Below are positions 17,028 through 47,985 of a stretch of 64,000 nucleotides of DNA, in pieces; position 1 is the first letter of the stretch; each line of letters opens with the position of its first letter. The notes under the pieces are model-generated. The model was given only the letters and a program-made list of their open reading frames with translations, had not been told where the DNA came from and did not search any database. Source of the DNA: an uncultured Syntrophobacteraceae bacterium. GTDB taxonomy: Bacteria > Desulfobacterota > Binatia > UBA9968. The position numbers and the translations under genes were made by a program. The stretch covers positions 22,603-86,602 of the forward strand of contig CAZNES010000006.1 of assembly GCA_964572145.1 (NCBI GenBank), read 5' to 3'.

Positions 17028-17657
17028 ATGAAACTCTACTATCATCCCAATTCACCCAACTGCGTGGACGTTCTCGCAACGGCGAATCACCTCGGCATCC
17101 AGCTCGATCTTGAGCTTGTCGATCTGCTCAAGGGCGCACAGAAAGATCTGGCCTATCTGAAGCTGAATCCCAACGGCCGAGTCCCGACGCTCGTGGATGG
17201 CGACTTCGTGCTCTGGGAGTCGAACGCGATCATGCAGTACATAGCGGGGAAAAAACCGAACAACGCTCTCTGGCCCGCCGACGACAAAACGCGCGCCGAC
17301 ATCAGCCGCTGGCAATTTTGGCAGGCGTCGCAATGGAATAAAGCGACCGGCACGCTGGTTTGGGAGAACATGATCAAAAGATTCCTGGGCGCCGGCGGGC
17401 CCGATCCCGCCGAAGTCAAAAAGGGCGAGGAGCTTTTTCACGCCTCGGCCGCGGTGCTTGACGGCCATCTGAAAGATCACGAGTATCTTGTCGGCAATGA
17501 ACCGACACTGGCCGACTTCTCTGTTGGCGCTATGCTGATCTATGCCCGGCCTGCGGGTTTCCCGTTGGAGAAGTACGAAAATATTCGCGCGTGGTATGGC
17601 AGGATCGAGAAGCTGGAGTCCTGGAAAAAGGCGCTGCTGGCGCAAACGCCGGCCTGA
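17028..17657 (+). CDS. glutathione S-transferase
   Basis: MKLYYHPNSPNCVDV..LNPNGRVPTLVDGDFVLWESNAIMQYI thioredoxin-like N-domain. Confidence 0.85.
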   Translation: MKLYYHPNSPNCVDVLATANHLGIQLDLELVDLLKGAQKDLAYLKLNPNGRVPTLVDGDFVLWESNAIMQYIAGKKPNNALWPADDKTRADISRWQFWQASQWNKATGTLVWENMIKRFLGAGGPDPAEVKKGEELFHASAAVLDGHLKDHEYLVGNEPTLADFSVGAMLIYARPAGFPLEKYENIRAWYGRIEKLESWKKALLAQTPA

Positions 17658-17660
17658 GTG

Positions 17661-20600
17661 CTAGACAGTCACCGCTTGCGGCTGAACCTGCTTCGCTGAG
17701 TTCCCTTTCAAATATTCGCGCAGGTAGCGGGCGGTGTGCGATCGCTTGCCGTCGTTGATGACGTCCAGCGGCGCTCCGCAGGCGATCACGTGTCCGCCAT
17801 TCTCACCGCCCTCGGGGCCGAGATCGACGAGATAGTCCGCTTCTTTGATGATTTCGAGGTTGTGCTCGATCGTGACCACTGTGTTGCCCATGTCCACGAG
17901 CCGGTGCAGGATGTGGATTAATTTCTCTACGTCCGCGAAGTGTAAACCCGTCGTCGGCTCGTCTAAAACGTAAAGCGTCTTTCCATGCGATTCTTTTCCG
18001 AGTTCATACGCAAGCTTGATACGCTGCGCCTCGCCGCCGGAGAGCGTGTTGCTCGCCTGCCCGAGTGTGATGTAGCTCATGCCGATGTCGTCGAGGATTT
18101 TGAGCGGCCGCGCGATCTTGGGGAAGGCGTGAAAGAAGGGTACGGCCTCTTCGACCGTCATTCTCAGCACGTCTCCGATATTTTTCCCGTTGTAGCGGAT
18201 ATTGAGCGTCTCCTCGTTGAAGCGCATTCCGCCGCAGGCGTCGCAGTGGAGAAATACGTCGGGCAAGAAGCTCATCTCTTTGCGAATCTTTCCCTGCCCC
18301 GCGCAGACCTCGCACCGGCCGCCGGAAACGTTAAATGAAAATCGATTCGGCGCGTAGCCGCGCAGCCGCGCCTCCGGCGTGAGCGCAAACATGCGCCGGA
18401 TCTCGTCAAGAAAGCCGACGTAGGACGCGGGAATCGAGCGCGGCGTCTTGCCGATCGGACTCTGGTCCACCTCGACGATTCGCTCCAGCGCTTGCCAGCC
18501 GGCGATGTCTTTGTGCTGTCCGGGGCGTCCGGCGAACTGCCCGAGCTTCGACTTGAGTCCCTTGTAAAGCACTTCTTTGACCAGCGTGCTTTTGCCGGAA
18601 CCGGAGATTCCGGTGACACAGCTCCAGGCGCCGAGCGGCAATTTGACGTCGACGTTCTTTAAATTGTTTGCCTTCGCGCCGTGGACGGTGAGCCAGGTCG
18701 AGCCGGCGAAAAGACGGAGCGGCCAGATTCTCTTCTTCGGCGCGTTGAGAAAATTGCCGGTCAGCGAGGTGGGGTTGCGGCGGATTTCTTCGGGCGTGCC
18801 GATCGCGACGACGTTGCCGCCGTGGACTCCCGCGCCGGGACCGAGGTCCACGATGATATCGGCGGCCTCGATCGTCGCCTCGTCGTGCTCGACCACGAGC
18901 ACGCTGTTGCCCGCATTTTTCAATTTCTTCAGCGTGCCGAGCAGCATGGCGTTGTCGCGCGGGTGGAGGCCGATCGTCGGCTCATCCAGAATGTAGCAGA
19001 CGCCGCGCAGATTCGACCCGAGCTGCGCCGCGAGACGGATGCGCTGCGCTTCTCCGCCCGAGAGCGTGTCGGCGCGGCGGTCGAGAGTGAGATAAGGCAA
19101 TCCGACTTCGCCGAGAAATTCGAGCCGCTGTTGGATCTCGCGCAGAACTTTCTCCATGACCGCGCGGTCGCGGTCCGTGCCGCCGTTGTCGTGCTGGCTC
19201 AAATCGAGGCCGTGGAAATAGCGCTGGGCTTCCTTCACCGAAAGCCCGGTGACCTGCCAGATCGCCTGGCCGTTTACTTTGACCGCTTGCGCGCGGCGAT
19301 TGAGCCTTCGGCCGTGGCAGGAAGCGCAGGAAGACTCGGCCATGAATTGCGACAGCCAATCGGCCAAGCCGTTCTCCGACCCGTCCCAGAGTCCTTTCAG
19401 ATACGGGATGAGACCGACAAATCCGCTATCGCCGCCGTGCACCACCCGGTCGCGAATTTTTTTGCTCAAGCGCGAGAACGGCGCTTTGACGTTGACGCGG
19501 TCTTTCTTGAGATCGCGTAGAATTCTTTCCAGGCGTCCCCTGATCGGTCCCGCGCCGGCGGTGGCGCCGGAGGACAACGAAGAAACAATCTCTTCCAAGG
19601 GCCGGCGCTGATTGCCGATAATCAGCTCGGGGTCGAATTCCAGACTGAAACCGACGCCGGAACATTCCGCGCAGGCGCCTTGCCGGCTGTTGAAGGAAAA
19701 CAATCTTGGGTCGAGAGTCTCGTAGCCGATGCCGCAGTGGAGGCAGAAGAGGCGCTGGTTGTAGATGTGCTCGCCCGAGCGCGTGACGAGATGCACCACG
19801 CCGTTGCCGAGGCGAAGCCCTTGCTCCACCATCGCTTCCACCTCGCGCCCGCCGGCTTTGGCCTGGCCGATGAGGATATCGATATCGTGCTCGCGGTAGC
19901 GCTCCAGGCCGGCGGCTAATTTCGGCGATCGGAGATCGACGACCTGTCCGTCGATGCGCGCGCGCCGGTAGCCGAGCTTGAGCGCGCCGGTGATCACCTC
20001 TTTGTGAAATCCCTTCCGTCCCCTGACGATGGGGCTCAGCACCGCGATTTCCTTTCCCCGATGAACGCGGGAGATGCGATCGAGGATCTGGCTTTTGGTC
20101 AGCGACCGGATCTCGCGCTCGCACTTCACGCAGTGCTGCTTTCCGACTTTCGAATAGAGGAGCCTCAGATAGTGGTAAATCTCGGTGACGGTCGCGACGG
20201 TCGAGTTCCTTCCTCCCTGGCTGAGACGCTGCTCGATCGCCACGGTGGGAGGAATGCCGGAAAGCAGATCGACGTTCGGCCGGTCCATGATGTTTAGGAA
20301 CTGCCGCGCGTAGGTGGAGAGGCTGTCGATGTAGCGCCGCTGCCCCTCGGCATAGATGATGTCGAATGCGAGCGAAGATTTTCCCGAGCCGCTGAGTCCC
20401 GTGATCACGACGAAGCGGTCGCGGGGAATCTCGAGGCTGATATTTTTTAGGTTGTGCTCCTTGGCGCCGACGATTTGAATGGCATGGTTACCGTTGCCGG
20501 CGCCGTTCGACTCGGCGACGCGAAAACTTTTCTCCAAGCGCGGCGCGAACTGAGAAACGGCGCCGCGCTTCAAATAGGGCTTCAAGTACCGCCCGGTATG

Positions 20601-23324
20601 AGACGCGGCGCTGCGTGCGATCTCCTCCGGCGTGCCCTCGGCCACGATCGCGCCGCCGGCGTCGCCACCCTCTGGCCCCAAGTCGATGATGTGATCGGCG
20701 CATTTGACCACGTCCATGTTGTGCTCGATAACGATGATGGAGTGGCCCTGGTCGATCAGCTCGTTGAACGCCCAGAGGAGCTTCTCGATGTCGTGAAAGT
20801 GAAGGCCGGTGGTCGGCTCGTCGAAAATAAAGAGCGTCCCCGACTTGCGCGCCTTCGCCATGTGGGCCGCGAGTTTCAGCCGTTGCGACTCACCGCCGGA
20901 GAGCGTCGTGAGCGGTTGTCCCAGCCGGACGTAGTCCAGGCCGACCGCGCGCAGCGGGCGCAGGCCGTATTCGATTTCCGTCGAGTCTTTGAAAAATTCC
21001 ATCGCCTCGGCGACCGTCATGTCGAGCACGTCGCGGATCGTGCGGCGGCGATAGGCCACCTCTAAAATTTCCTGGCGGTAGCGGCTCCCCTGGCACTCGG
21101 GGCAGGAGGTGTAAACGTCCGAGAGGAACTGCATCTCGACTTTTTCAAAGCCTTCGCCCCGGCAGGTCTCGCATCGGCCTCCTTCGACGTTGAAAGAAAA
21201 AGTCGAAGGAGTGTAGCCCCGGAGGCGGGAAAGATCCGCGGCGGCGAAGAGCTTGCGGATGCCGTCGAAGACTTTCATGTAGGTCGCGGGGTTCGACCGT
21301 GGCGTCGTCCCGACCGGCGATTGATCGACCAAAATGACATCGGAGATCTTGTCCGCGCCTTCCAGGCTCGCGCAGTGCATGACCGTTGCGCCCGGAGAGT
21401 CTTTCAGCTTACGCAAATTGCGGTTTATCACTTCGTTGACCAGGCTCGACTTTCCCGAGCCGGAAACGCCGGTGAGGCAGACAAAAAGGCCCAGCGGAAT
21501 TTCCACGTCGATGGTTTTGAGATTGTTGGCATCCGCGCCGAAAATTTTAATGGTTCGCTGCGGGATCGGCTTGCGCCTCTTCGAAGGAAACGGAATGTTC
21601 TTTCTCTGCGACAGATACGCGGCGGTGAGGGACTTCTGGTCGCTCAAGAGATCGTTGTAAGATCCGGCAAAGACGATCTCGCCGCCGTGCTCGCCGGCCT
21701 TCGGTCCGAGGTCGATGATGTAGTCGCTCTCCTTGATGATCTCCGGATCGTGCTCGACCACGACCACGGTGTTTTGGTTGGCGCGGAGATCGTGAAGAAT
21801 TTCGACCAGCCGCCGGCTATCGCGTGGGTGCAGGCCGATCGACGGCTCGTCGAGGACGTAGAGCGTGTTCACCAGCGACGAGCCGATCGCGGTGGTGAGA
21901 TCGACGCGCCCGAGCTCGCCGCCAGAGAGCGTGCGCGACTGCCGGTCCAAGGTCAGATATTCGAGGCCGACGCCCATGAGATAACCGAGCCGGCGCCGGA
22001 TCTCGTCGAGAATCAGCGCTGCAACCGCGTCGCTCTCAGCGCCGAGATGAAGATCATTGAAGAAGCAATGCGCCTCGCCCACGCTCATCGCGGCGATATC
22101 GGCGACGGTTTTTTCGTCGACGCGGAAATTGAGCGCGTCGGGTTTCAGCCGCGACCCCCGGCATTCCGGGCAGAGTAGATAGGCGCGGTAGCGCGAGAGA
22201 AAGACGCGCACATGCATGCGGTAGCTCTTCCGCTCCAGCCGCTGGAACCAGCCGCGGATGCCTTTAAACTTGCCGTCGCCGTCGACGATCAGTTTCTTCT
22301 GCTTCTCGCTCAGCTCGCCGTAAGGCTTCTTGGTCGGAATCTTTTTGCTTTCGCAAAATTCCATCAGTCGCGCCGTCCGCCGCGGCTTGGTCTTCCACGG
22401 CTTGATCGCGCCGTCGGCGAGCGACTTCGTCGGATCGGGGATCACGAGATCCAAATCGATGTCGATCACTCGCCCAAAACCGCGGCAGATTTCGCACGCG
22501 CCCAACGGGCTGTTGAACGAGAACAGATTCGGCGTGGGCTCGTGGTAGGTCAAATCGCAATGCGGACAATGGAAGTGGCTGCTGAAGGGCTCCACACGCC
22601 AGCCGTCTTCCGGGTAGTAAAAGTTTACCCTTCCCTTGCCGAACTGAAGCGCTTGTTCGAGCGAGTCGCAAATTCTCTTTCTGGCGTCTGGCCGGTAAAT
22701 CAACCGGTCCACGACAACTTCGATTCGCTCCGTCCCGGCGGGGAGATCTTCGATCTCTTCCAGATTGCAGACGGCGCGGTCGCGCAAAAGACGATGGAAG
22801 CCCGCTTGCTGCAACCCCGCCTTAGTCTCGCTCCAGGGAAGCGAGGGAGAAATCGAAAGCGGAAAAGCCAGAACCAGAGGCGTCCCTTCGGGCATGCCGC
22901 TCAATTTCTTGAATATCGATTGGGCCGTGTCCCGCTCCACCACCCGCCCGCAGCCTTTGCAATAAAGGACCGAGACCTTGGCGAAGAGGAGCTTCAGATG
23001 ATCGTGCAGCTCGGTCATGGTGCCGACCGTCGAGCGCGAGGTCTTGACCGGCCGCCGCTGGTCGATCGCGATCGTCGGCGGAATGCCTTCGATGCTTTCC
23101 ACGTCGGGCTTGTCCATGCGGTCGAGGAACTGGCGCGCGTAGGCGGAAAAACTTTCCACGTAGCGCCGCTGCCCCTCGGCGTAAAGGATGTCGAAAGCGA
23201 GAGTGGATTTGCCCGAGCCGCTGACTCCGGTGACGACGGTCAGGGCGCCCAGCGGAATGTCGAGGTCGAAGTTTTTAAGATTGTTCTGCTTTGCGCCGCG
23301 GATGCGGATCCAACCTTCATTCAT
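17661..23324 (-). CDS. uvrA: giant tandem UvrA-UvrA fusion protein (1887 aa; four ABC ATPase modules)
   Basis: Two complete UvrA units in one ORF: first begins [44 protein letters not shown], second begins ~aa 950 [39 protein letters not shown]; the second unit carries the canonical UvrB-binding signature [13 protein letters not shown] and an insertion domain; the first unit has an insertion domain but a divergent region instead of the UvrB-binding signature. Confidence 0.9.
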
Positions 23325-23332
23325 GGAATGGC

Positions 23333-23659
23333 CTATTGTAGTTGATACCTTTCGACCACAATGCGGCGGAAGCGGGAGCCGTAGATCAAATCGAAAGTCT
23401 CGCCTTTGTCGGGAAAAAGCTCGAGGGCTTTTTCCCGCGCGTCGGCGACGAGCTTCTGAGCTTGGGCGAGGGTCAGGTCGGCTTGCCGGAGGAGCGCGGC
23501 GGTAAAATCCATCAGGGTGCGGAGCCGTTTCAGCCTTAATTCCTCGGCGCGTACTGCTTCGTCATCCGGGATCATCGTACAACCTTTTACTTGTATCACA
23601 GGTCGCAAGTGAGTCAAGGCAAAATGATTGCGGTGAGTCCTTTCGGAGAGATCCTTCAC
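23333..23659 (-). CDS. small hypothetical protein (80-108 aa) ending ~6 bp before the giant uvrA start
   Basis: ORF ..MIPDDEAVRAEELRLKRLRTLMDFTAALLRQADLTLAQAQKLVADAREKALELFPDKGETFDLIYGSRFRRIVVERYQLQ; predicted coiled/helical; position suggests co-transcription. Confidence 0.45.
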   Translation of the reverse strand: MKDLSERTHRNHFALTHLRPVIQVKGCTMIPDDEAVRAEELRLKRLRTLMDFTAALLRQADLTLAQAQKLVADAREKALELFPDKGETFDLIYGSRFRRIVVERYQLQ

Positions 23660-26527: not shown

Positions 26528-28807
26528 ATGAAGACCATGGAAGTTTCCCGCAGACAATTTCTCAAAGGCGCCGGCGCGCTCATCGTCAGCTTCAACCTCT
26601 TTCCGGCGGCGCGAAATGTCTTGGCCGCCCAGTTCGCGACGTTGCCTTCCGGCGACATCGATCCACAGTCGCTCGATTCCTGGCTCGCGATCGGCAAGGA
26701 CGGCAGCGTCACGTTCTACACCAGCAAAGTCGAGCTCGGCACAGGCACGATCACGGCATTGGCGCAGATCGTCGCGGAAGAATTAGATGTGTCTTTCGAC
26801 CGCGTCAAAATGGTTTACGGCGACACTTCTCAAACAATCGAGCAAGGCTCCACCGTCGGGAGCCGCAGCATCGAGCGCGCCGGCCCGCAGGTGAGACAGG
26901 CCGCGGCGGCGGCGCGCCAGGAGCTGCTCAAGCTCGCCGCCGCGCGGCTCGGCGCGCCTGTCGAGAAACTAACGGTCCAAAACGGCGTGGTCAGCGATGG
27001 CGCAAAGAAAGTTTCTTACGGCCAACTGATCGGCGGCCAGCGCTTCAACGTCAAGATCACCGCCACCGGCGCCGGCAACGAGATGAAGGTCGCGCCCGAA
27101 GTGAAGCCGAAAGATCCAAAGGATTATAAAATCGTCGGCCAGCCGATGAAACGCATGGACTTGCCCGGCAAGCTTACGGGAGAACACCTCTACGCGCACG
27201 ACGTGCGCATTCCCGGGATGCTGCACGGCCGCGTGGTCCGTCCGCCGGTCGTCAATACCGAGCCGACCAGCATTGACGAGAGCTCAGTTAAAAATATTCC
27301 CGGCTTCGTGAAGGTCGTGCGCGAGGGAAGCTTTGTCGGCGTCGTAGCCAAGACGCAGTGGGCCGCGATCAAATCCGTCGAAGCGCTGAAGGTCACCTGG
27401 GCCCCTCCCACGACGAAGCTGCCGGCGAACCCAGAGGCGTTATTCACTTACTTGAAAAACACCAAGCCCGCGCGCACGCTGAAGGCAGTGGAGAAAGGGA
27501 ATCCGGCAGAAGCCTTCGACAAGGCCAAAAAGACCTATCAGGCGAGCTACCGCTGGCCTTTTCAGATGCACGGCATGATCGGCCCGTCGTGCGCCATCGC
27601 CGACGTCAAGGGCGACAAGGCAACCATCTGGTCGGGACCGCAGGGGCCGTTCAGAACGCGCGCGACGGTCGCGACGATTTTAAAAATTCCCGAGCAGAAC
27701 GTGCGTGTGATTTACCACGAAGCTTCCGGTTCCTACGGGCGCATGAGCACCGACGACGGCGCCGAAGACGCGGCGCTGCTTTCGCGCGCGGCCGGCGCCC
27801 CGGTGCGCGTCCAGTGGTCACGCCAGGACGAACATGGCTGGGAACCCAAAGGTCCGGCGCAGGTGGACGAGGTGAAGGCGGCGATCGACGGCGACGGCAA
27901 GCTCATCGCGTGGGATTTCGTCGATTATGGCCAACCGTGGACGGCTTCAGGATCGACGCCGCTCCTCGCTTCGCTGCAGGTCGGCATCAAGCCCAATAAT
28001 CCCGGCGGTTCCAACGGCACGCAGAGCAGTGGCGAGATTTACGCGGTGCCCAATCAAAAGATCGTTGCCGAACATATCAATTGGCACTTTGCGGAACCGA
28101 TTCCGTTGCGCACGGGCAATCTGCGCGCGCCCGGCGACTCGGCGCGCTGCTTCGCGAGCGAGTGTTTCCTCGACGAGATCGCGGCCGATCTGGGCGTCGA
28201 TCCGGTCGAATTTCGCCTGCGCCACACGGCGGAGCCGCGCGGCGCGGACTGTCTCAAGGCCGCCGCCGACAAGGCGCAATGGCAAAAGCGTTCGTCGCCC
28301 GGTCCCGCTCAGAGCGGGAACATCGCCAAGGGTCGCGGTGTCGCGCTCGCGCGCAGAGCGGGCGCTTACGCCGCGGCGGTGGCCGACGTGGAAGTGAACC
28401 GAACGACGGGCCAGGTCGTCGTCAAGCGCGTCGTCTGTTCGCACGACTGCGGACTGATTGTGAATCCCGACGGCGTCAACAATCAGATCGAAGGCAACGT
28501 GATCCAAGGCGTCAGCCGCGCGCTGTTCGAGGAAGTCACCTTCGATGAGAAAGGCGTGACCAGCCTGGATTGGAAGACGTATCCGATTCTTAAATTCAGC
28601 GACGTGCCGGAAATTGAAATCGTGCTCATCAACCGGCCCGAGATGCCGTCGCTGGGCGCCGGCGAGCCGTCGACGGTCCCCGTTCCGGCCGCGATCGCCA
28701 ACGCGATCTTCGACGCGACCGGCGCGCGGCTGCGCGAAGCGCCGTTCACGCCGGCGCGGGTTTTGACCGCGCTTAAAGCTGCGCCAGCTGCGAATCAGAA
28801 GAGTTGA
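26528..28807 (+). CDS. molybdopterin-dependent oxidoreductase large subunit (isoquinoline 1-oxidoreductase beta / aldehyde dehydrogenase-like) with Tat signal
   Basis: N-term MKTMEVSRRQFLKGAGALIVSF twin-arginine motif; 759 aa MoCo-binding domains. Confidence 0.85.
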   Translation: MKTMEVSRRQFLKGAGALIVSFNLFPAARNVLAAQFATLPSGDIDPQSLDSWLAIGKDGSVTFYTSKVELGTGTITALAQIVAEELDVSFDRVKMVYGDTSQTIEQGSTVGSRSIERAGPQVRQAAAAARQELLKLAAARLGAPVEKLTVQNGVVSDGAKKVSYGQLIGGQRFNVKITATGAGNEMKVAPEVKPKDPKDYKIVGQPMKRMDLPGKLTGEHLYAHDVRIPGMLHGRVVRPPVVNTEPTSIDESSVKNIPGFVKVVREGSFVGVVAKTQWAAIKSVEALKVTWAPPTTKLPANPEALFTYLKNTKPARTLKAVEKGNPAEAFDKAKKTYQASYRWPFQMHGMIGPSCAIADVKGDKATIWSGPQGPFRTRATVATILKIPEQNVRVIYHEASGSYGRMSTDDGAEDAALLSRAAGAPVRVQWSRQDEHGWEPKGPAQVDEVKAAIDGDGKLIAWDFVDYGQPWTASGSTPLLASLQVGIKPNNPGGSNGTQSSGEIYAVPNQKIVAEHINWHFAEPIPLRTGNLRAPGDSARCFASECFLDEIAADLGVDPVEFRLRHTAEPRGADCLKAAADKAQWQKRSSPGPAQSGNIAKGRGVALARRAGAYAAAVADVEVNRTTGQVVVKRVVCSHDCGLIVNPDGVNNQIEGNVIQGVSRALFEEVTFDEKGVTSLDWKTYPILKFSDVPEIEIVLINRPEMPSLGAGEPSTVPVPAAIANAIFDATGARLREAPFTPARVLTALKAAPAANQKS

Positions 28808-35851: not shown

Positions 35852-36415
35852 ATGCCGGAAGAGAGCCCGCGCATTCAATATCTCAGCGGCAAATTCGGCG
35901 CGCTGATTCTTGAATCGCATGTGCTCCACGGCGACGAGACGGTCGTCATCCGCCGGGAGGGATTGCTGGAGATCGTCCGCGCTCTCAAAGAAGATCCCAA
36001 AATGGACTTCGATTTTCTCGCGGACCTTACCGCGGTCGATTATTTGGGAAAAAAAGAGCCGCGCTTCGAAGCGGTCTATCACCTGCTTTCCTTGCAGAGC
36101 CATCGCCGCATCCGCGTCAAAGTCCCGGTTCCGGAAGATCAGCCGGAAGTCGATTCTTTGACGCCGCTGTGGAAGGGGGCGAACTGGCTGGAGCGCGAGG
36201 TCTGGGACATGTTCGGCATTCGCTTTCGCGGCCATCCCGATCTCCGACGCATCCTGCTCTACGAGGAGTTCCGCGGCTATCCGCTGCGGAAAGACTATCC
36301 GGTGAACCAGCGCCAGCCTCTGATTCCCGAGCGGCCGCTCGCGGGAACTTTCGTCGATACCCGGTCGGACAATAAACTCTTGCAACTGAAGCAGAAGGCT
36401 GAGCGCAAGCCATAA
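35852..36415 (+). CDS. nuoC: NADH-quinone oxidoreductase subunit C
   Basis: ..EREVWDMFGIRFRGHPDLRRILL.. 30-kDa subunit signature; begins 6 bp after nuoA (no nuoB in between). Confidence 0.9.
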   Translation: MPEESPRIQYLSGKFGALILESHVLHGDETVVIRREGLLEIVRALKEDPKMDFDFLADLTAVDYLGKKEPRFEAVYHLLSLQSHRRIRVKVPVPEDQPEVDSLTPLWKGANWLEREVWDMFGIRFRGHPDLRRILLYEEFRGYPLRKDYPVNQRQPLIPERPLAGTFVDTRSDNKLLQLKQKAERKP

Positions 36416-36423
36416 GCGGCGCC

Positions 36424-37614
<1,191 letters not shown>

Positions 37615-37635
37615 ATCGCAAAGGTAGGGGCGGGT

Positions 37636-38136
37636 TTGAAACCCGCCACTACGCCGAGAAAAATGGCCTTGGAATTTTCACCCGAGACGCGCAAAAATTT
37701 AGACGAGATCGTCGGCCGCTATCCGAAAAAAGAGGCGGCGATGCTGCCGGTCCTTCGACTGGCTCAGGAGGAGTTCGGCTATCTCAGCGCCGAGGCGATC
37801 GAATACGTCGCCGCGATCATGGGCGTCCCGGCGGCGCGGGTCTACGGCGTCGTTACGTTCTACACGATGCTCAACATGAAGCCGATCGGCAGGCACCACG
37901 TCCAGGTCTGCCGGACGCTCCCCTGCGCGCTGGCGGGCGCGGAGCGGATGACCGCGGCGATCAAGGCGAAGCTCGGCATCGGAGTCGGAGCAACCACGGC
38001 GGACGGAAAATTCACGCTCTCGGAAGTCGAGTGCCTAGCCTCCTGCGGCACGGCGCCGATGATGCAGGTGAACGACGACTACTACGAAAACCTGAACGAG
38101 CAAAGCGTGGGCGAAATTCTCGACAAGCTGAAGTAA
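37636..38136 (+). CDS. nuoE: NADH-quinone oxidoreductase subunit E (2Fe-2S)
   Basis: ..VQVCRTLPCALAGAE..ECLASCGTAPMMQVN.. ; TTG start behind AGGTAGGGG, alternative ATG at 37663. Confidence 0.85.
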   Translation: MKPATTPRKMALEFSPETRKNLDEIVGRYPKKEAAMLPVLRLAQEEFGYLSAEAIEYVAAIMGVPAARVYGVVTFYTMLNMKPIGRHHVQVCRTLPCALAGAERMTAAIKAKLGIGVGATTADGKFTLSEVECLASCGTAPMMQVNDDYYENLNEQSVGEILDKLK

Positions 38137-38138
38137 CG

Positions 38139-39410
38139 ATGGAAAAGATTCTGCTACGGAACGTTGGCGCGCCGGACTCGTACACGATCGGAGTTTACCG
38201 TTCCCGCGGCGGCTACGGCGCGCTGGAGAAAGTGCTGCGCGAGATGTCGCCCGAGCGGCTCATCGGCGAGATTAAAGCTTCCGGCCTGCGCGGGCGCGGC
38301 GGCGCGGGTTTTCCCACCGGCATGAAGTGGGGTTTCGTTCCCAAGGACAATCCCAAGCCGAAATACGTCGTCTGCAACGCCGATGAGAGCGAGCCAGGAA
38401 CGTTCAAGGACCGGCTGCTCATCGAGAAAGATCCGCACGCGATCGTCGAAGGCACGATCATCGCCGCTTACGCGATTCGGTCGCACACCGCCTTCATCTA
38501 CATCCGCGGCGAGTTCAGCTTCGGCGCCAAAGTACTGGAGCGCGCAATCGCCGAAGCCAGAGCGGCGGGATATCTGGGAAAAAATATTCTCGGCTCGGGT
38601 TACGACCTCGACTTGATTCTCCACCGCGGCGCGGGCGCGTATATCTGCGGCGAAGAAACCGGGCTGCTCTCGTCGTTGGAAGGCGGCAAAGGCTGGCCCA
38701 AGGTCAAGCCGCCGTTCCCGGCGACGCACGGCCTCTTCGGCTGCCCGACGGTCGTGAACAACGTCGAGACGTTGGCTTCCCTCCCATGGATCATCGAACA
38801 GGGCGCGGCGCGATACGCGGCGATCGGCACCGAGAAAAGCAAGGGCACGAAACTCTTCAGCGTCAGCGGCCATATCAAAAAACCCGGGGTCTACGAAGTG
38901 GATATGGGTTATCCGTTCAAGAAATTTCTCCAAGAAGATTGCGGCGGCGTGCCGAACGGAAAAAAGTTGAAGGGCGTGATTCCCGGCGGCGCGTCGATGC
39001 CGGTGCTGCGGCCTGACGAGCTCGACGGCATCACGATGGACTACGAATCGTTCCAGGCCGCCGGCACGCTGCTCGGCTCGGGCGGCGTGATCGTTATGGA
39101 CGAATCGACCTGCATGGTCCGCGCCGCGTGGAACATCTCGCGGTTCTTCGAGCATGAGTCCTGCGGGCAGTGCAGCCCGTGCCGCGAGGGCTGCCACTGG
39201 ATGGAAAAGATTTTCCGGCGCATCGAGCGCGGCGAAGGAAAGACAGGCGATTTGGATCTCATCCTCAGCGTGAGCGGCAACATCGCAGGCAACACGATCT
39301 GCCCGTTCGGCGACGCGGCCGCCATGCCCGCCGCCGCCTTCATCAAGAAATATCGCGACGAGTTCGAAGAGCACATCGCGCGCAAGCGGTGCACGGTTTC
39401 GGCGAGTTAA
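38139..39410 (+). CDS. nuoF: NADH-quinone oxidoreductase subunit F (FMN, 4Fe-4S)
   Basis: MEKILLRNV..GLRGRGGAGFPTGMKW..; C-terminal CGQCSPCREG; track ORF 37602..39410 N-extension is out-of-context and rejected. Confidence 0.9.
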   Translation: MEKILLRNVGAPDSYTIGVYRSRGGYGALEKVLREMSPERLIGEIKASGLRGRGGAGFPTGMKWGFVPKDNPKPKYVVCNADESEPGTFKDRLLIEKDPHAIVEGTIIAAYAIRSHTAFIYIRGEFSFGAKVLERAIAEARAAGYLGKNILGSGYDLDLILHRGAGAYICGEETGLLSSLEGGKGWPKVKPPFPATHGLFGCPTVVNNVETLASLPWIIEQGAARYAAIGTEKSKGTKLFSVSGHIKKPGVYEVDMGYPFKKFLQEDCGGVPNGKKLKGVIPGGASMPVLRPDELDGITMDYESFQAAGTLLGSGGVIVMDESTCMVRAAWNISRFFEHESCGQCSPCREGCHWMEKIFRRIERGEGKTGDLDLILSVSGNIAGNTICPFGDAAAMPAAAFIKKYRDEFEEHIARKRCTVSAS

Positions 39411-39414
39411 TTTC

Positions 39415-41004
39415 ATGGCGGATCCGGTAAAAATCACCATCGACGGGCGGGAAGTCGCGACGACCAAGGGCAAGACCGTCATCCAGGCGGCGGCGGATGC
39501 GGGAATCGCCATTCCCCATTATTGCTACCATCCGAAGCTTACGATCGCGGGAAACTGCCGCATGTGTCTCGTCGAGATCGAAAAAATGCCCAAGCTCCAG
39601 ATCTCCTGCAACACCCTTGTGACCGAGGGCATGGCGGTCAAGACGCAAAGCCCGAAAGTTTTGGAAGCGCGCCGCGCGGTGATGGAGTTTCTGCTCATCA
39701 ACCATCCGCTCGACTGTCCGATCTGCGACCAGGCGGGCGAATGCTGGCTGCAAGACTACTACATGGAGCACGACCTCAGCGCGAGCCGCTTCGACGAAAG
39801 AAAAGAGCACGAGCGCAAGCGCGAGATCTTCGGCCCGTACGTTGTCTTCGACGGCGAGCGCTGCATCAAGTGCACCCGCTGCGTGCGCTTTTTGCAGGAA
39901 GTGACCCACACGGACGAGCTCACGGTGGTGAACCGCGGCGACGATTCCACGATCGCTTTGTTTCCGGGAGAAATTTTGGACAACCCGCTTTCGGTCAACG
40001 TCGTGGACATCTGCCCGGTCGGCGCGCTCACCGACCGCGATTTCCGCTTCAAAGTCAGGGTGTGGTACCTCGAGAAGACGAAGTCAGTCTGTCCCGGCTG
40101 CAGCACGGGCTGCAATATTTCGCTCGAGACCTATCAGAACCGCATCGCGCGCTTCAAGCCGCGAGTCAACGAAGCCGTGAACAGTCATTGGTTGTGCGAC
40201 GAGGGGCGCTACTCTTTTCATGCCCTCACCGAAGGCGAGCGGCTGACGACACCGATGATCCGCCAGGAAGGCGGCCTGGTGCCGGCGGGTTGGGACACCG
40301 CTCTGCAAGCCGCGATCGCGGGTCTCGGCGCCAACGGACCACTCCTAGGTGTCCTCTCCGGAAGAAACACGAACGAAGAAGCGTTTCTCTTCACCCGTCT
40401 GATGAAAAATATTTCCGCGCAGGCCGAACTTGAAGTTTTCTACCGTGAGAGAGAGCTGACCGAAGTCGAGAAAGTTCTCAAGAGCCCGGACCGCTCGCCG
40501 AACTTTCGCGGCGCGCGCGACATGGGCGTCCATTCGAACGGCGGCTTCGACTCGTTGGCGGGCCGGCTGGTTGCCGGGAATTTTCGCGGCGCCTATATCG
40601 TCGGCGAAGATCTAATCAATCTGCCCGGCGACGGCGAGAAAATCCAAACCGCCCTGGAGAAGCTTTCGTTTCTGGTCGTTCAGGACACGCGGCTCACGCC
40701 GACGGCCAAGCTGGCGCAGGTGGTCCTTCCCGCCACACACTTCGGGGAAAAAGAAGGCACCTACACGAACCGCCGCGGCAGAGTGCAGAAACTCAATGCC
40801 GCGATCGTCCCGCCTTTGGGCGCGCTTCAGGACTGGGAAATTTTTTCCCGCTTGCTCGCGCGAGCGGGAGAGAAAGCCGCGTATGCAACCGCGGCGGAAA
40901 TCTTTTTGGCGCTTGCCCGTGAGATTCCGGCTTACGGCGGACTCAGCTACGACAAGATCGGCGATCAGGGATTTCAGCTCGGCAACGAGACCCAACAACC
41001 ATGA
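39415..41004 (+). CDS. nuoG: NADH-quinone oxidoreductase subunit G, short form (529 aa)
   Basis: ..HYCYHPKLTIAGNCRMCLVEIEKMPKLQISC..HPLDCPICDQAGEC..CIKCTRCVRF.. Confidence 0.9.
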   Translation: MADPVKITIDGREVATTKGKTVIQAAADAGIAIPHYCYHPKLTIAGNCRMCLVEIEKMPKLQISCNTLVTEGMAVKTQSPKVLEARRAVMEFLLINHPLDCPICDQAGECWLQDYYMEHDLSASRFDERKEHERKREIFGPYVVFDGERCIKCTRCVRFLQEVTHTDELTVVNRGDDSTIALFPGEILDNPLSVNVVDICPVGALTDRDFRFKVRVWYLEKTKSVCPGCSTGCNISLETYQNRIARFKPRVNEAVNSHWLCDEGRYSFHALTEGERLTTPMIRQEGGLVPAGWDTALQAAIAGLGANGPLLGVLSGRNTNEEAFLFTRLMKNISAQAELEVFYRERELTEVEKVLKSPDRSPNFRGARDMGVHSNGGFDSLAGRLVAGNFRGAYIVGEDLINLPGDGEKIQTALEKLSFLVVQDTRLTPTAKLAQVVLPATHFGEKEGTYTNRRGRVQKLNAAIVPPLGALQDWEIFSRLLARAGEKAAYATAAEIFLALAREIPAYGGLSYDKIGDQGFQLGNETQQP

Positions 41005-42104
41005 TCATCGACTTCGCGATCATCGCGGCCAAGGCCTTTCTCGTTCTCTTCATGGTGCTCAACCTGGCCGGCGTTCTGGGCTGGATCGAGCGCAAAGGCA
41101 GCGCGCTGATTCAAGACCGCATCGGCGCCAACCGCGCATCGATTTTCGGCTTCGCCGGCATGGGGCTCGTCAACACGCTGATCGCCGATCCGATCAAGTT
41201 TCTCTTCAAGGAAGATTTCATTCCGGCCACGGGCGACCGCCTGCTGCACACGCTGGCACCTTGCCTGGCACTTTTCCCGGCGCTGGTGACGTTCGCTGTC
41301 ATCCCATTTGGCGACGTTCTCGTCCTCGGCGGCCGCGAGATCAATCTTCAAGTCGCGAACTTGAATATCGGCGTGCTTTATATTTTCGCCATGGCGTCGC
41401 TCGGCGTCTACGGCATCGTCATCGGCGCGTGGGCCTCGAACAACAAGTTCTCTCTTCTCGGCGGCGTCAGAGGCGCCGCGCAGATGATCTCCTACGAGAT
41501 CGCGATGGGCCTGTCGGTCATGGGCGTGCTGATGGTCTACGGCACGCTCGAGCCGCAACAGATGGTGCGGGCGCAGGGCGAGCTCCTCGGGGGCTGGCTA
41601 CCGGCGTGGGGATTTTTTCTCCAGCCGGTCGCGTTCCTGCTTTTCTTTACCGCGGCGGTCGCGGAGACCAAGCGCATACCCTTCGATATCCCCGAGGGAG
41701 AGTCGGAGATCGTCGCCGGCTATCGCACGGAATATTCCGGCGGAAAATTTCTCATGTTCTTCGCCGGCGAGTTCGCCGAGATCGTCACGGCGGCGGGGCT
41801 TGTCACGACGCTTTTCTTCGGCGGCTGGCAGGTTCCCTGGCTCATGCGCGACGGCTTTCACTTTCCCTGGGGCGGCGCGATTGTTTTATCGCCGCTCGCT
41901 GTGACCGTGTTGCAAGTCGCGGCCTTCACCCTCAAAGTCGTCTTCTTCTGCTGGCTGCAAATCCTCCTGCGCTGGAGCCTGCCGCGCTTTCGTTACGACC
42001 AGGTGATGCGCCTCGGCTGGAAGATGTTGCTGCCGGTCGCGCTCGTGAACGTCGTGGTCACTGCCGTTTGGATCGTGCTCCGCGAACGGCTTTCCAATCC
42101 ATGA
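41001..42104 (+). CDS. nuoH: NADH-quinone oxidoreductase subunit H
   Basis: ..LGWIERKGSALIQDRIGANRA..; 4-bp overlap with nuoG. Confidence 0.9.
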   Translation: MIIDFAIIAAKAFLVLFMVLNLAGVLGWIERKGSALIQDRIGANRASIFGFAGMGLVNTLIADPIKFLFKEDFIPATGDRLLHTLAPCLALFPALVTFAVIPFGDVLVLGGREINLQVANLNIGVLYIFAMASLGVYGIVIGAWASNNKFSLLGGVRGAAQMISYEIAMGLSVMGVLMVYGTLEPQQMVRAQGELLGGWLPAWGFFLQPVAFLLFFTAAVAETKRIPFDIPEGESEIVAGYRTEYSGGKFLMFFAGEFAEIVTAAGLVTTLFFGGWQVPWLMRDGFHFPWGGAIVLSPLAVTVLQVAAFTLKVVFFCWLQILLRWSLPRFRYDQVMRLGWKMLLPVALVNVVVTAVWIVLRERLSNP

Positions 42105-42111
42105 ACGAACG

Positions 42112-42594
42112 ATGATTCTCTTTCTCATTCTCGCCGCGCTGTCGATTATCTCTTCGCTGCTGGTGATCTTTCCGCGTAGCGTGGTGCGCAATGCCATGGC
42201 GCTCGCGGCGACGCTTTTTTTCGTCGCCGTTCTGTTCGTCACGCTGGACGCTCCGATGGTCGGCGCCCTGCAGGTGCTGGTCTACGCGGGCGCGATCATG
42301 ATCCTGATTCTTTTCGTCATCATGCTGCTCAATCCCGCCGCGTTGGAGGCGCGGCCGGTCGCCTGGGGAATGACGGGCGCGCTCGCGGCAGTCGCGTTGC
42401 TACTGGAGCTGGTCGCCATATTTTTCTATCGGCCGTCGTCCGCAGAACAGCCGTCGGTAACGGTCGGCTTCGGCGGGCCGGAAGCGCTGGCGCAGAGCCT
42501 CTTCACCGACTTCGTTCTCCCTTTCGAGATCGCCTCCGTCCTGCTCTTGGTCGCGATCATCGGCGCGGTCGCGCTGGCAAAGAGGGAAGGCTAA
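42112..42594 (+). CDS. nuoJ: NADH-quinone oxidoreductase subunit J
   Basis: 160 aa, 5 TM, ..LQVLVYAGAIMILILFVIMLL..; follows nuoH directly (no nuoI). Confidence 0.85.
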   Translation: MILFLILAALSIISSLLVIFPRSVVRNAMALAATLFFVAVLFVTLDAPMVGALQVLVYAGAIMILILFVIMLLNPAALEARPVAWGMTGALAAVALLLELVAIFFYRPSSAEQPSVTVGFGGPEALAQSLFTDFVLPFEIASVLLLVAIIGAVALAKREG

Positions 42595-42599
42595 CTGGG

Positions 42600-42705
42600 A
42601 CAATGCAAAAGTCAAAGTGCAAAATGCAAATTTCAAAATGCACAAGGCCGAAAATCCGGCAATTTTGCATTTTTCATTTTTCATTTTTCATTTTGCAATC
42701 GGGGT
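42600..42705. repeat. AT-rich hairpin repeat (TGCAAAA heptamer arrays) between nuoJ and nuoK
   Basis: GCAAAAGTCAAAGTGCAAAATGCAAATTTCAAAATGCACA - loop GGCCGAAAATCCGGC - CAATTTTGCATTTTTCATTTTTCATTTTGCAATCGG; same family as the 10.5-kb element. Confidence 0.7.
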
Positions 42706-42710
42706 GAACA

Positions 42711-43013
42711 GTGGTCCCGCTGCATTACTATCTCGCGCTCAGCGCCGTGCTCTTCGCCATCGGCGTCGCCGGGGTTCTCATCCGGCGCGACATCATCGTC
42801 ATCCTCATGTCGATCGAGCTGATGCTGAACGCGGTCAACCTGACGTTTATCGCGTTCGCACGCTTTCTCGGCTCGATGGACGGGCAGGTGATCGTCTTTT
42901 TCGTCATGACCGTCGCGGCGGCGGAGGCCGTGGTGGGGCTGGCGATCGTCATCTCGGTTTTCCGGCACCGGCGGACGTTGGACCCGCAGGATATGCAGCT
43001 TCTCAAATGGTAG
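42711..43013 (+). CDS. nuoK: NADH-quinone oxidoreductase subunit K
   Basis: 100 aa, 3 TM, ..[17 protein letters not shown]..; GTG start. Confidence 0.9.
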
Positions 43014-43017
43014 CGCT

Positions 43018-43072
43018 CCCAATGTTGAATTTTGAATTATGAATTTTGAATTGAAATCCGATTCGGAAATCG
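43018..43072. repeat. tandem TGAATTN heptamer repeat (x4) between nuoK and nuoL
   Basis: TTGAATTTTGAATTATGAATTTTGAATTGAAAT followed by small palindrome TCCGATTCGGA. Confidence 0.6.
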
Positions 43073-43075
43073 CAG

Positions 43076-44977
43076 ATGGGAACTAGCCTGCTGCGCCTCA
43101 TACCGCTCTTTCCGCTGGTCGGCGCCGCGGTGAATATTTTTTTCGCGACGCGCGTCAGCCGAAAATTCGCCGGCGTGCTCGCTTGCGCCGCCGTGGGGCT
43201 GTCGTTTCTCGTCTCGCTGCAAATTTTTGCGCTCCTCTCTCCGACGGAAGTTTTTCACGATACCCTTTTTACCTGGATCGATTCCGAGCCGTTCAAGGCG
43301 AGCCTTTCGCTGCAAGCCGACGCCTTGACCGCGGTGATGCTGCTCGTGATCACCGGCATCGGTTTCCTTATCCACGTTTATTCGTTGGGCTACATGGGTC
43401 ATGATGAAGGCATGGTGCGCTACTTCGCGTACCTCAATCTCTTCGTCTTCTTCATGTCGCTGCTGGTCCTGTCCGATAATCTGCTGCTGCTCTTCGTCGG
43501 TTGGGAAGGGGTCGGGCTTTGCTCGTATCTTTTGATCGGCTTCTGGCACCAGGATCACACCAACACGATCGCCGGCAACAAGGCCTTCATCGTCAACCGC
43601 ATCGGCGACTTCGGCTTCATCCTCGGCCTCTTGCTGCTTTTCTGGGAGCTCGTCCGCCACGGCGCACCGAGTCTCAACTTCTCCGACTTACAGCAGAGCG
43701 CCCATCTCCTGCGGCCTGAAACCGTAACGATAGTCACGCTGCTGCTTTTTGCCGGCGCGACCGGCAAGTCGGCGCAAATCCCGCTCTTCGTTTGGCTCCC
43801 CGACGCGATGCAGGGGCCGACGCCGGTGAGCGCGCTGATCCACGCGGCCACGATGGTCACCGCCGGCGTCTATATGATGGCGCGGCTCAATTTTCTTTTC
43901 GCGCTGGCGCCCACGACGCTGGCCGTGATCGCCACCGTCGGCGCGCTCACCGCTTTTTTTGCTGCGACCGTCGCCGTGGCGCAAAACGACATCAAGCGCG
44001 TGCTGGCCTACTCCACGGTGAGCCAGTTGGGCTACATGTTCCTGGCGGTCGGCGTCGGCGCGTTTAGCGCGGCGGTCTTCCACCTCTTTACGCATGCGTT
44101 CTTCAAGGCCTGTCTCTTTCTCGGCTCGGGGAGCGTCATCCACGCGCTCGGCGGAGAGCAAGATATGAGAAAGATGGGCGGGCTCCGGCGCCATTTGCCA
44201 GCGACCTACTGGACATACTTAATCGCCACGCTGGCGATTTCCGGCGCGCCGCTGACGGCGGGATTTTTTTCCAAAGACCGGATTCTTTGGGAGACTTATT
44301 CGAGTCCTCTCGGTTCCGTCCAGCTATGGGCGCTGGCCTGGATCACAGCCGGGCTCACCGCCTTTTATATGTTCCGCCAGTTGTTCATGGTGTTTCACGG
44401 CGAGTCCCAAGCAGCAGAATCCGTCAAATCTCACATCCACGAGTCACCGGCGTTGATGACCGTGCCGTTGGTGTTGCTGGCGCTGGGTTCGGTCTTCACG
44501 GGATGGTTATCGACCCCCGACTTTATGTGGGGAAGCGTTTGGGATGCTTGGTTGCAACCGATTTTCGGCGCCCCCAAAACCGCCGCGCACGCGGCAGTCA
44601 ATGATGAATTGTTCCTGACCGCGATCACGCTTGGCATAGCGGCGCTGGGAATCTTCGTCGCGTTCGTTTTTTACGGCCGGGAGAGCAGAATCGCCGAGCG
44701 GATTGCCGCTACGCGACTCTATCGTTTGCTCGCTGGCAAGTACTACGTCGATGAACTTTACGACCGTCTCTTCGTGCGGCCGTTCGCCGTGTGCTCTGTC
44801 TGGCTCGCGCGGCGCTTCGATCCGGGAGTGATCGACGGCATCGTCAACGGCGTCGCCGCGAGCGTCCGCGCGACGAGCCTCTCCTGGCGCCGGCTTCAGA
44901 GCGGCAACGTGCAGCACTACTTGTTCGCTTTTTTGGCCGGGACGCTTTTGATCTTTGCGTATTTTTTGAGGTGGTGA
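43076..44977 (+). CDS. nuoL: NADH-quinone oxidoreductase subunit L
   Basis: 633 aa antiporter-like subunit; ..LLFVGWEGVGLCSYLLIGFW.. Confidence 0.95.
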   Translation: MGTSLLRLIPLFPLVGAAVNIFFATRVSRKFAGVLACAAVGLSFLVSLQIFALLSPTEVFHDTLFTWIDSEPFKASLSLQADALTAVMLLVITGIGFLIHVYSLGYMGHDEGMVRYFAYLNLFVFFMSLLVLSDNLLLLFVGWEGVGLCSYLLIGFWHQDHTNTIAGNKAFIVNRIGDFGFILGLLLLFWELVRHGAPSLNFSDLQQSAHLLRPETVTIVTLLLFAGATGKSAQIPLFVWLPDAMQGPTPVSALIHAATMVTAGVYMMARLNFLFALAPTTLAVIATVGALTAFFAATVAVAQNDIKRVLAYSTVSQLGYMFLAVGVGAFSAAVFHLFTHAFFKACLFLGSGSVIHALGGEQDMRKMGGLRRHLPATYWTYLIATLAISGAPLTAGFFSKDRILWETYSSPLGSVQLWALAWITAGLTAFYMFRQLFMVFHGESQAAESVKSHIHESPALMTVPLVLLALGSVFTGWLSTPDFMWGSVWDAWLQPIFGAPKTAAHAAVNDELFLTAITLGIAALGIFVAFVFYGRESRIAERIAATRLYRLLAGKYYVDELYDRLFVRPFAVCSVWLARRFDPGVIDGIVNGVAASVRATSLSWRRLQSGNVQHYLFAFLAGTLLIFAYFLRW

Positions 44978-44981
44978 GGGC

Positions 44982-47949: not shown

Positions 47950-47985
47950 ATTGCAGCGTTCTTCCTGACTTTAGAGTACAGAGTC

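Follow-up and report, generated by a model that had tools for sequence, protein, structure and literature searches.

The Double uvrA Gene and Its Product

The DNA analyzed here, hereafter called the window, is a stretch of 64,000 nucleotides from contig CAZNES010000006.1 (assembly GCA_964572145.1) of an uncultured bacterium of the Binatia. It carries a double uvrA gene at 17661-23324 on the minus strand. The gene was found in a mechanical list of open reading frames (ORFs) and has a stop-free translation; it starts with ATG and encodes 1887 amino acids (aa) plus a stop codon. The product consists of two full-length UvrA units, an N-terminal one (N-unit, aa 1-920; 20565-23324) and a C-terminal one (C-unit, aa 949-1887 plus the stop; 17661-20480). 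The linker between them (aa 921-948; 20481-20564) is about 28 residues long; it is variable, with 14% mean pairwise identity, and alignable across the family. All parts of this gene mentioned below lie on the minus strand.

An earlier note on this DNA had described the ORF as two complete UvrA units in one uninterrupted frame, each with two Walker-A/signature ATPase modules and CxxC zinc modules, and this description is borne out. For profile comparison the protein was cut at residue 944, and both halves give end-to-end matches. The N-half matches NF001503 with 1127.8 bits over profile positions 5-942 of 943, which is slightly under the cut-off of 1147, and it exceeds the cut-off of TIGR00630 (1092.6 bits vs. 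729.8). The C-half matches NF001503 above the cut-off, with 1159.1 bits over positions 4-942 of 943. The N-unit also aligns end to end with the UvrA of G. stearothermophilus (Bst UvrA, 2r6f), and the C-unit does so with solved UvrA chains. As the E-values of the UvrA matches in the window are all 0, chance is of no concern.

Walker A motifs of the form G-x-SGSGKS are found in both nucleotide-binding domains (NBDs) of both units. In the N-unit they lie at aa 33-40 (NBD-I, K39; 23205-23228) and aa 619-626 (NBD-II, K625; 21447-21470), and in the C-unit at aa 976-983 (NBD-I, K982; 20376-20399) and aa 1572-1579 (NBD-II, K1578; 18588-18611). The four lysines are the equivalents of K37 and K646 in E. 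coli UvrA, and the catalytic residues K37, K646, and G502 of that enzyme are conserved in both halves. The LSGGE signature, the DEP(S/T) Walker B motif, and the (V/I)EH(D/N) H-loop likewise occur four times each, and 12 CxxC pairs make up six zinc modules, three in each unit, at the expected positions. Judged by these motifs, all four ATPase sites and all six zinc modules are intact.

Both units contain a UvrB-binding domain. That of the N-unit (aa 126-252; 22569-22949) is recognized by Pfam family PF17760 (UvrA_inter) at aa 133-236 with 54.5 bits and an E-value of 1.2e-14, and 127 residues separate the first two zinc CxxC pairs of the N-half. That of the C-unit (aa 1069-1193; 19746-20120) matches the same family with 69.7 bits and contains the motif RGRKGFH. 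Both units also carry an insertion, in each case between the second pair of CxxC motifs. The N-unit insertion domain comprises 104 aa (aa 281-384; 22173-22484) and gives a partial match to PF17755 at aa 290-354 (52.9 bits). The C-unit insertion domain comprises 111 aa (aa 1222-1332; 19329-19661); it is divergent and fast-evolving, and no Pfam match to it was found at E ≤ 0.001. A fragment of the latter modeled with AF2 is predicted to be helical with moderate confidence (pLDDT 63), and the best Foldseek matches of this model are UvrA structures, with E about 1e-3 and TM about 0.5.

It is close to certain that the gene is real, belonging to the chromosome of a Candidatus Binatia bacterium, and that it is a member of a family of double UvrAs. 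An NCBI contig of 92,679 bp, which also encodes the 842-aa UvrA described below, has exactly this 1887-aa protein recorded as a single gene product, and the G+C content of the gene is 0.59-0.62, like that of its surroundings. The two halves are 41% identical over 947 aa. The longest DNA repeat they share is 206 nt at 75% identity, which is too weak for an assembler to have collapsed or concatenated uvrA copies through it. Domain mapping had been suggested as a way of recognizing a trivial recent duplication; with halves that are only 41% identical and not equivalent, a recent duplication is excluded. Judged from their sequences, the halves diverged anciently, and the gene is neither an assembly artifact nor a late duplication.

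Relatives, Distribution, and Age of the Fusion

A protein search over 5.8 billion proteins gave more than 120 clusters of 1874-1920 aa that are 75-96% identical to the double UvrA at 99-100% coverage. Homologs of similar length, which the earlier note had proposed to look for, are thus numerous, and they stem from independent NCBI, JGI, ENA, and Logan assemblies. A genome scan using one genome per species gave 590 related stretches, and the best 80 of these loci were analyzed. All 80 span query residues 1 to about 1880, and in 65 of them the frame runs without interruption for 1800 codons or more; most of the shorter frames end at contig ends. A stop codon or frameshift between the units, which the earlier note had named as a refutation, was also looked for in these relatives, and the fusion withstands this test. 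The frame is intact, with 1885-1947 codons, on 16 of the 17 megabase-scale contigs.

In a few relatives the frame is broken. It is interrupted in loci L043 and L076, and an ENA contig of 38,292 bp carries two fragments belonging to the same cluster, P0409 (532 aa) and P0413 (1127 aa). These could be pseudogenes, sequencing errors, or genuine splits.

The genomes nearest to the query are metagenome-assembled genomes (MAGs) of Candidatus Binatia, where the double UvrA is 96% and 86% identical. Full-length orthologs at 42-70% identity are found in Acidobacteriota (Marinacidobacterales, Vicinamibacteria) and Verrucomicrobiota (Akkermansiaceae, Luteolibacter, Rubritalea), and further ones in Wallbacteria, Myxococcota, Desulfobacterales/Syntrophaceae, and Methylomirabilota.

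An exhaustive HMMER search with the N-half as query was performed against 1.84 billion cluster representatives (50% identity clusters), and the best 150 were analyzed; being picked by similarity to the N-half, this sample is biased toward relatives of the query. Most of the 150 are proteins of 1550-2340 aa, that is double UvrAs, and they are routinely annotated as UvrA, so the fusion is not the unusual solution that it was first taken for. Splitting the proteins into units left 107 clean double-UvrA clusters. Both units are full in 37 of these, as in the query, while in 34 a full first unit is followed by a unit lacking the insertion domain. Both units are without a UvrB-binding domain in 23 clusters, and the remaining 13 display other combinations. 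Loss of the insertion domain is clearly biased to the second unit, since the reverse arrangement was found in 4 clusters vs. 34. The tether between the units has a median length of 21 residues in the 107 clusters.

When the units were compared over 603 core columns, first units were nearest to other first units and second units to other second units in 235 of 243 cases, which shows that the fusion is old and not a lineage-specific accident. It either arose few times or spread.

The named relatives are annotated merely as UvrA or as ABC protein, and a literature search for work on duplicated, tandem, or fused UvrA found no paper analyzing double UvrAs in the library that could be searched. The fusion itself is not new; the double UvrA is a common, annotated, and barely studied known type.

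The Two Units Are Not Equivalent

E. coli UvrA (from NC_000913.3) was aligned with both halves and with the 842-aa paralog encoded in the same window in order to map residues, and conservation columns and per-domain identities were obtained from 65 related genomes. R216 and E222 of E. coli UvrA belong to the UvrB interaction surface (UvrB/Mfd contact) that was mutated by Manelyte et al. (PMC3025350). E. coli R206 corresponds to R207 in the N-unit, Q1154 in the C-unit, and R207 in the paralog. The corresponding residues are R217, E1161, and R217 for R216, and E223, E1167, and E223 for E222. In the N-unit R207 and R217 are invariant (65/65 genomes) and E223 is kept in 57/65, while the three matching columns of the C-unit are variable. 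The RGRKGxH motif is strictly conserved in the C-unit and is found neither in the N-unit nor in the paralog.

This motif had been regarded as a UvrB-binding signature, and the N-unit, which was said to keep an insertion domain and to have a divergent segment instead of the signature, was accordingly called class-II-like. The insertion domain is indeed there, and so is the divergent segment, which reads SISPSLPW at the aligned place of the motif. However, the motif is also missing from the otherwise very canonical 842-aa UvrA, which keeps the equivalents of R216 and E222. The class-II-like assignment of the N-unit does not hold, in view of the PF17760 match, the spacing of 127 residues, and the conservation of R217 and E223. 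The C-unit, on the other hand, had been called canonical. It does have the motif (aa 1098-1110) and the 111-aa insertion, but the equivalents of R206 and R216 are lost and its insertion domain is divergent.

Joint mutation of R712, R722, R724, and R730 in E. coli UvrA abolishes DNA binding. The first three are arginines in the N-unit, the C-unit, and the 842-aa paralog alike. The position of R730 is occupied by T708 in the N-unit, R1661 in the C-unit, and R630 in the paralog. The C-unit thus retains all four DNA-binding arginines, which lie in signature domain II, while the N-unit column for R730 is T in 47/65 genomes and never R.

The units also differ in how fast their accessory domains change. 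The mean pairwise identity is 0.59-0.72 in the ATPase cores, 0.37 in the N-unit and 0.40 in the C-unit UvrB-binding domain, 0.55 in the N-unit insertion domain, and 0.27 in that of the C-unit (occupancy 85%); the value for the linker is 0.14. The insertion domains thus differ twofold in conservation between the units, while the UvrB-binding domains are about equal, and the domain that evolves fastest in this protein is the C-unit insertion. In the 65 genomes the motifs of all four ATPase modules (Walker A and B, signature, H-loop) are essentially invariant, as are five of the six zinc modules.

The sixth is the first zinc module of the N-unit (C122/C125/C253/C256 in the query), where all four cysteines are replaced by D/N/T in 10/65 genomes. 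The first module of the C-unit is almost always retained. The loss is a further sign that the N-unit UvrB-binding domain has been remodeled in some lineages. The tail of the NBD-I signature in the N-unit (aa 466-477; about 21894-21929) is also altered. It reads LSGGE-L-G/E-R-V-D-L-T, unlike the near-universal form, with E or G in place of Q and D in place of the second R, and these changes are conserved in the close clade. They point to a change in one of the protein's four composite ATP sites.

By these comparisons the two halves are clearly non-equivalent, with the experimentally defined UvrB contact residues found in the N-unit and not in the C-unit, and the pattern of asymmetry may be a small new observation. 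A reciprocal model in which the N-unit provides the insertion domain and the C-unit the UvrB binding was suggested by the close relatives. It was dropped when the broader genome set and the alignment with the E. coli enzyme were used, as the UvrB contact residues map to the N-unit.

The 842-aa UvrA Encoded in the Same Window

A second UvrA of this genome, which had been recognized before as a domain-deleted paralog, is indeed encoded in the window at 195-2723 on the plus strand, 15 kb from the double uvrA. The protein has 842 aa and is class-I-like. Its UvrB-binding domain is present, while the whole insertion domain has been swapped for a linker of ~24 residues. The double protein is thus the sole insertion-domain-bearing UvrA seen in the window. 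As described above, the 842-aa protein keeps the equivalents of R216 and E222 and all four DNA-binding arginines, and it matches the UvrA equivalog model with 1319 bits, above either half of the double UvrA.

The 842-aa form occurs throughout the lineage. It is represented by more than 100 clusters of 840-860 aa and 65-100% identity, mostly from Binatia, and the synteny of this type of uvrA is conserved, as the genes on its two sides encode a phosphoglucomutase and a cysteine desulfurase. Co-occurrence of the double UvrA and the 842-aa UvrA is shown for this contig only. An E. coli UvrA without the insertion domain is preferentially defective in global repair and less so in Mfd-dependent (transcription-coupled) repair (PMC3025350). 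By analogy, the 842-aa protein may be a natural specialized UvrA.

Genomic Neighborhood

The neighbors of the double uvrA are housekeeping genes, encoding SUF proteins, IspG, prolyl-tRNA synthetase (ProRS), PyrF, ThiD, GroEL, and complex I. The local gene order is partly common to a Binatia MAG at 75% identity. Among the 80 related loci the only recurrent neighbors are a divergent radical S-adenosylmethionine (SAM) gene (14 loci), a DUF983 protein (12 loci), and a small upstream ORF (18 loci). A scan for promoters and terminators gave no signal above background.

The small upstream ORF encodes 80 aa (MIPDDEAVRAEELRLKRL...RFRRIVVERYQLQ). It is found at 23333-23575 on the minus strand, with 8 nt between its end and the start of the double uvrA. 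It has no Pfam match, but it is conserved: 18 related loci have it at this place and in this orientation, with 53-86% identity. These 18 loci all belong to the close clade, where the double UvrAs are at least 71% identical. The 80-aa ORF may be a co-transcribed partner of the double uvrA.

Just downstream of the double uvrA, two ORFs at 17028-17657 (plus strand) and 17052-17645 (minus strand) overlap almost fully. The former encodes a glutathione S-transferase according to Pfam, and the latter is probably spurious. The window also encodes three paralogous molybdenum hydroxylase large subunits of the xanthine dehydrogenase/aldehyde oxidase family, at 26528-28807 (plus strand), 48928-51237 (plus strand), and 58218-60512 (minus strand), and a complex I (nuo) operon at about 36400-48000 on the plus strand. 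A strongly negative AT skew at 42-48 kb is explained by the three membrane antiporter-like subunits encoded there.

Proposed Mode of Action and Alternative Explanations

In a UvrA dimer each protomer provides two ATPase sites, a DNA-clamping insertion domain, and a UvrB-docking domain. The insertion domain serves damage recognition and discrimination in global repair (PMC3025350). When the M. tuberculosis UvrA homodimer is bound to damaged DNA, the two insertion domains (IDs) split the labor, one being the recognition-ID and the other the support-ID (PMC11985968). The first UvrB binds the protomer with the released insertion domain, giving a UvrA2UvrB1 intermediate, and each UvrB makes contact with both protomers, with the docking domain in one and with signature domain II in the other (PMC11985968).

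We consider it probable, with some reserve, that the double UvrA is a single-chain, asymmetric equivalent of UvrA2 that feeds UvrB in nucleotide excision repair (NER). Intramolecular pairing, UvrB loading, and a role in excision repair are what we infer from the domain content, the conservation pattern, and the distribution of the gene. Two class-I-type units in head-to-tail fusion, connected by a short flexible tether, would fold back on each other and form a UvrA2-like dimer within one chain. This intramolecular UvrA2 equivalent would scan the DNA, clamp a lesion, and hand it to UvrB. Such a fold is the simplest inference, as there are two full units connected by a short tether that varies in sequence and is conserved in length. 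The N-unit has kept the canonical UvrB/Mfd contact residues and an insertion domain that is conserved, while the C-unit has all four DNA-binding arginines, a drifting insertion domain, and a remodeled UvrB-binding surface. The asymmetric divergence fits protomers that are no longer forced to be identical, so that redundancy is relaxed. The insertion domain of the C-unit would be free to drift, and it is lost in about a third of the double-UvrA clusters. The protein had been proposed to be a covalently linked heterodimer of a class-II-like and a class-I UvrA. As a heterodimer of non-equivalent halves this remains the most economical reading, but the composition proposed for it does not hold.

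Several points speak against a single-chain UvrA2 serving excision repair. uvrB, uvrC, and mfd were not found in the window or beside the gene in the 80 related loci, and hence the gene neighborhood gives no link to excision repair. The match to Bst UvrA is 1148 bits for the 842-aa UvrA vs. 889 and 945 for the two halves; judged by sequence, the 842-aa protein is nearer to the canonical UvrAs and could be the main repair enzyme. Moreover, in the model for M. tuberculosis the UvrA dimer loosens at hand-off (PMC11985968), and this is a movement that a tether would constrain.

A more specific version of the proposal is tentative, and we regard it as possible rather than probable. According to this the single-chain "dimer" would have a permanent division of labor, with the N-unit acting in recognition and in UvrB/Mfd docking and the C-unit as a DNA-gripping support whose insertion domain is dispensable, and Binatia would split global and transcription-coupled repair between two UvrAs. 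In homodimers on damaged DNA the division is transient: one protomer recognizes the lesion, while the other supports it and recruits the first UvrB. The double protein would be responsible for global-genome repair and the insertion-domain-less paralog for transcription-coupled repair. The paralog is assigned to the latter because the E. coli insertion-domain deletion mutant is biased toward that pathway.

The strongest of the alternatives, though in our view an unlikely one, is that the double UvrA has, as a paralog, an accessory role apart from canonical excision repair, and that the 842-aa UvrA is the real NER sensor. The accessory role could be removal of DNA-bound toxins or intercalators, as for the class II proteins DrrC and Ecm16, or some other kind of damage tolerance. 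The 842-aa protein outscores either half of the double UvrA both with the UvrA equivalog model and with Bst UvrA, has the UvrB contact residues and the four DNA-binding arginines, and is lineage-wide in Binatia, and UvrA paralogs with roles outside NER are documented (PMC9328131). However, those involved in drug resistance are without a UvrB-binding domain (PMC9328131), while both halves of the double UvrA have one, and the contact residues of the N-half are strictly conserved. Further, no biosynthetic or resistance gene cluster was found in the window or in the flanks of the 80 related loci. The 842-aa UvrA, moreover, has no insertion domain, and the E. coli mutant of this kind is defective chiefly in global repair (PMC3025350).

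Compared with folding within one chain, it seems rather improbable that the units pair between chains (e.g., an N-unit with the C-unit of a second protein) and so build dimers of doubles or longer assemblies on DNA. The tether is short, with its median of 21 residues, and UvrA dimer interfaces are dynamic (PMC11985968), both of which would fit such an arrangement. Two indirect arguments point the other way. The short length of the tether is stable over more than 100 divergent clusters, and the repeated loss of an accessory domain from one of the units is what would be expected of a fixed pair in the same chain. The last alternative, that a sequencing or assembly error fused two neighboring uvrA genes or that a tandem duplication collapsed, is very improbable for this gene and is already refuted for the family: although the source is a metagenome-assembled contig and the frame is broken in L043, L076, and the ENA contig with the 532-aa and 1127-aa fragments, the same protein of 1874-1920 aa comes from independent assemblies of many projects, 65 species-level genomes have an uninterrupted frame, 16 of them on megabase-scale contigs, the halves are 41% identical without a long DNA repeat, and the linker region aligns across the family.

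Significance

The separate roles of the UvrA protomers, the four ATPase sites, and the insertion and UvrB-docking domains are hard to dissect because the enzyme is a symmetric homodimer. From recent cryo-EM work it has been proposed that the two protomers no longer act alike when a lesion is bound. The double UvrAs found in nature, the present one included, reveal which features evolution retains in only one protomer, and they offer a ready scaffold for mutating the four ATPase sites one protomer at a time, which is impossible in a homodimer. Their main value lies in being such a natural scaffold. The fusion itself is abundant in public data, annotated as UvrA, and has a curated parallel in the NCBIfam model NF001885. 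Since the double genes are annotated as ordinary UvrA, genome-based inventories of repair capacity overlook the combination of a double UvrA and an insertion-domain-less UvrA. Some phyla have these two instead of, or beside, the textbook enzyme.

Comparison with Known UvrA Systems

Each half of the double UvrA has the full layout of the canonical class I UvrAs, represented by those of E. coli (b4058), G. stearothermophilus (2R6F/3UWX), T. maritima (3PIH), and M. tuberculosis (3ZQJ/9GA2-4). In each half there are two nucleotide-binding domains of the ABC type and three zinc modules, as well as a UvrB-binding domain and, at the place of the insertion domain, an insertion that is recognized by PF17755 in the N-half only. 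The halves align end to end with the solved UvrA structures with E-values of about 1e-266 to 1e-287. The double UvrA differs from these enzymes in having two units per chain, whereas they are homodimers of ~940-aa chains. The N-unit is without RKGxH and the C-unit without R206/R216, so that neither UvrB-binding domain has all the motifs. Other differences are the divergent insertion domain of the C-unit and the T in the N-unit at the position of E. coli R730.

Class II UvrAs have neither a UvrB-binding domain nor the first of the zinc modules (PMC9328131, PMC5128194). Like the double UvrA, D. radiodurans UvrA2 (2VF7), DrrC, and Ecm16 (7SH1) are paralogs that co-exist with another UvrA, and the ABC ATPase core is common to all of them. 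The halves match 2VF7 and 7SH1 with E-values from 1e-132 to 1e-178. Both halves possess the UvrB-binding domain and the first zinc module, however, and neither of them is therefore a class II UvrA.

A double-length "excinuclease ABC subunit A" has its own curated equivalog model of 1809 positions, NCBIfam NF001885 (PRK00635), which we take to represent the chlamydial UvrA of about 1786 aa. The N-half of the query aligns to the first half of this model, and the double UvrAs P0132 and P0246 are colinear with it across the junction. The query itself is not a member, since it scores 1271.2 bits in four separate stretches vs. a cut-off of 3054, and five other double UvrAs that were tried are all under the cut-off too. 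Given this score and the four stretches, the query belongs to another lineage of double UvrA than NF001885.

Further counterparts in public data are other double UvrAs such as those of bacterium HR30 (GBD25426.1), Wallbacteria (MBI4869822.1), and Planctomycetota (MBN1441489.1). Unlike the query, other double UvrAs have often deleted the insertion domain of the C-unit (34 clusters), and there are also class II/class II doubles without UvrB-binding domains (23 clusters), e.g., that of Acanthopleuribacter pedis (WP_207861754.1). The HR30 protein is the nearest 50%-identity cluster, with a core identity to the query of 66% in the N-unit and 68% in the C-unit. It shares with the query, as do the Wallbacteria and Planctomycetota proteins, the two-unit architecture, the short tether, and the position-specific relatedness of the units.

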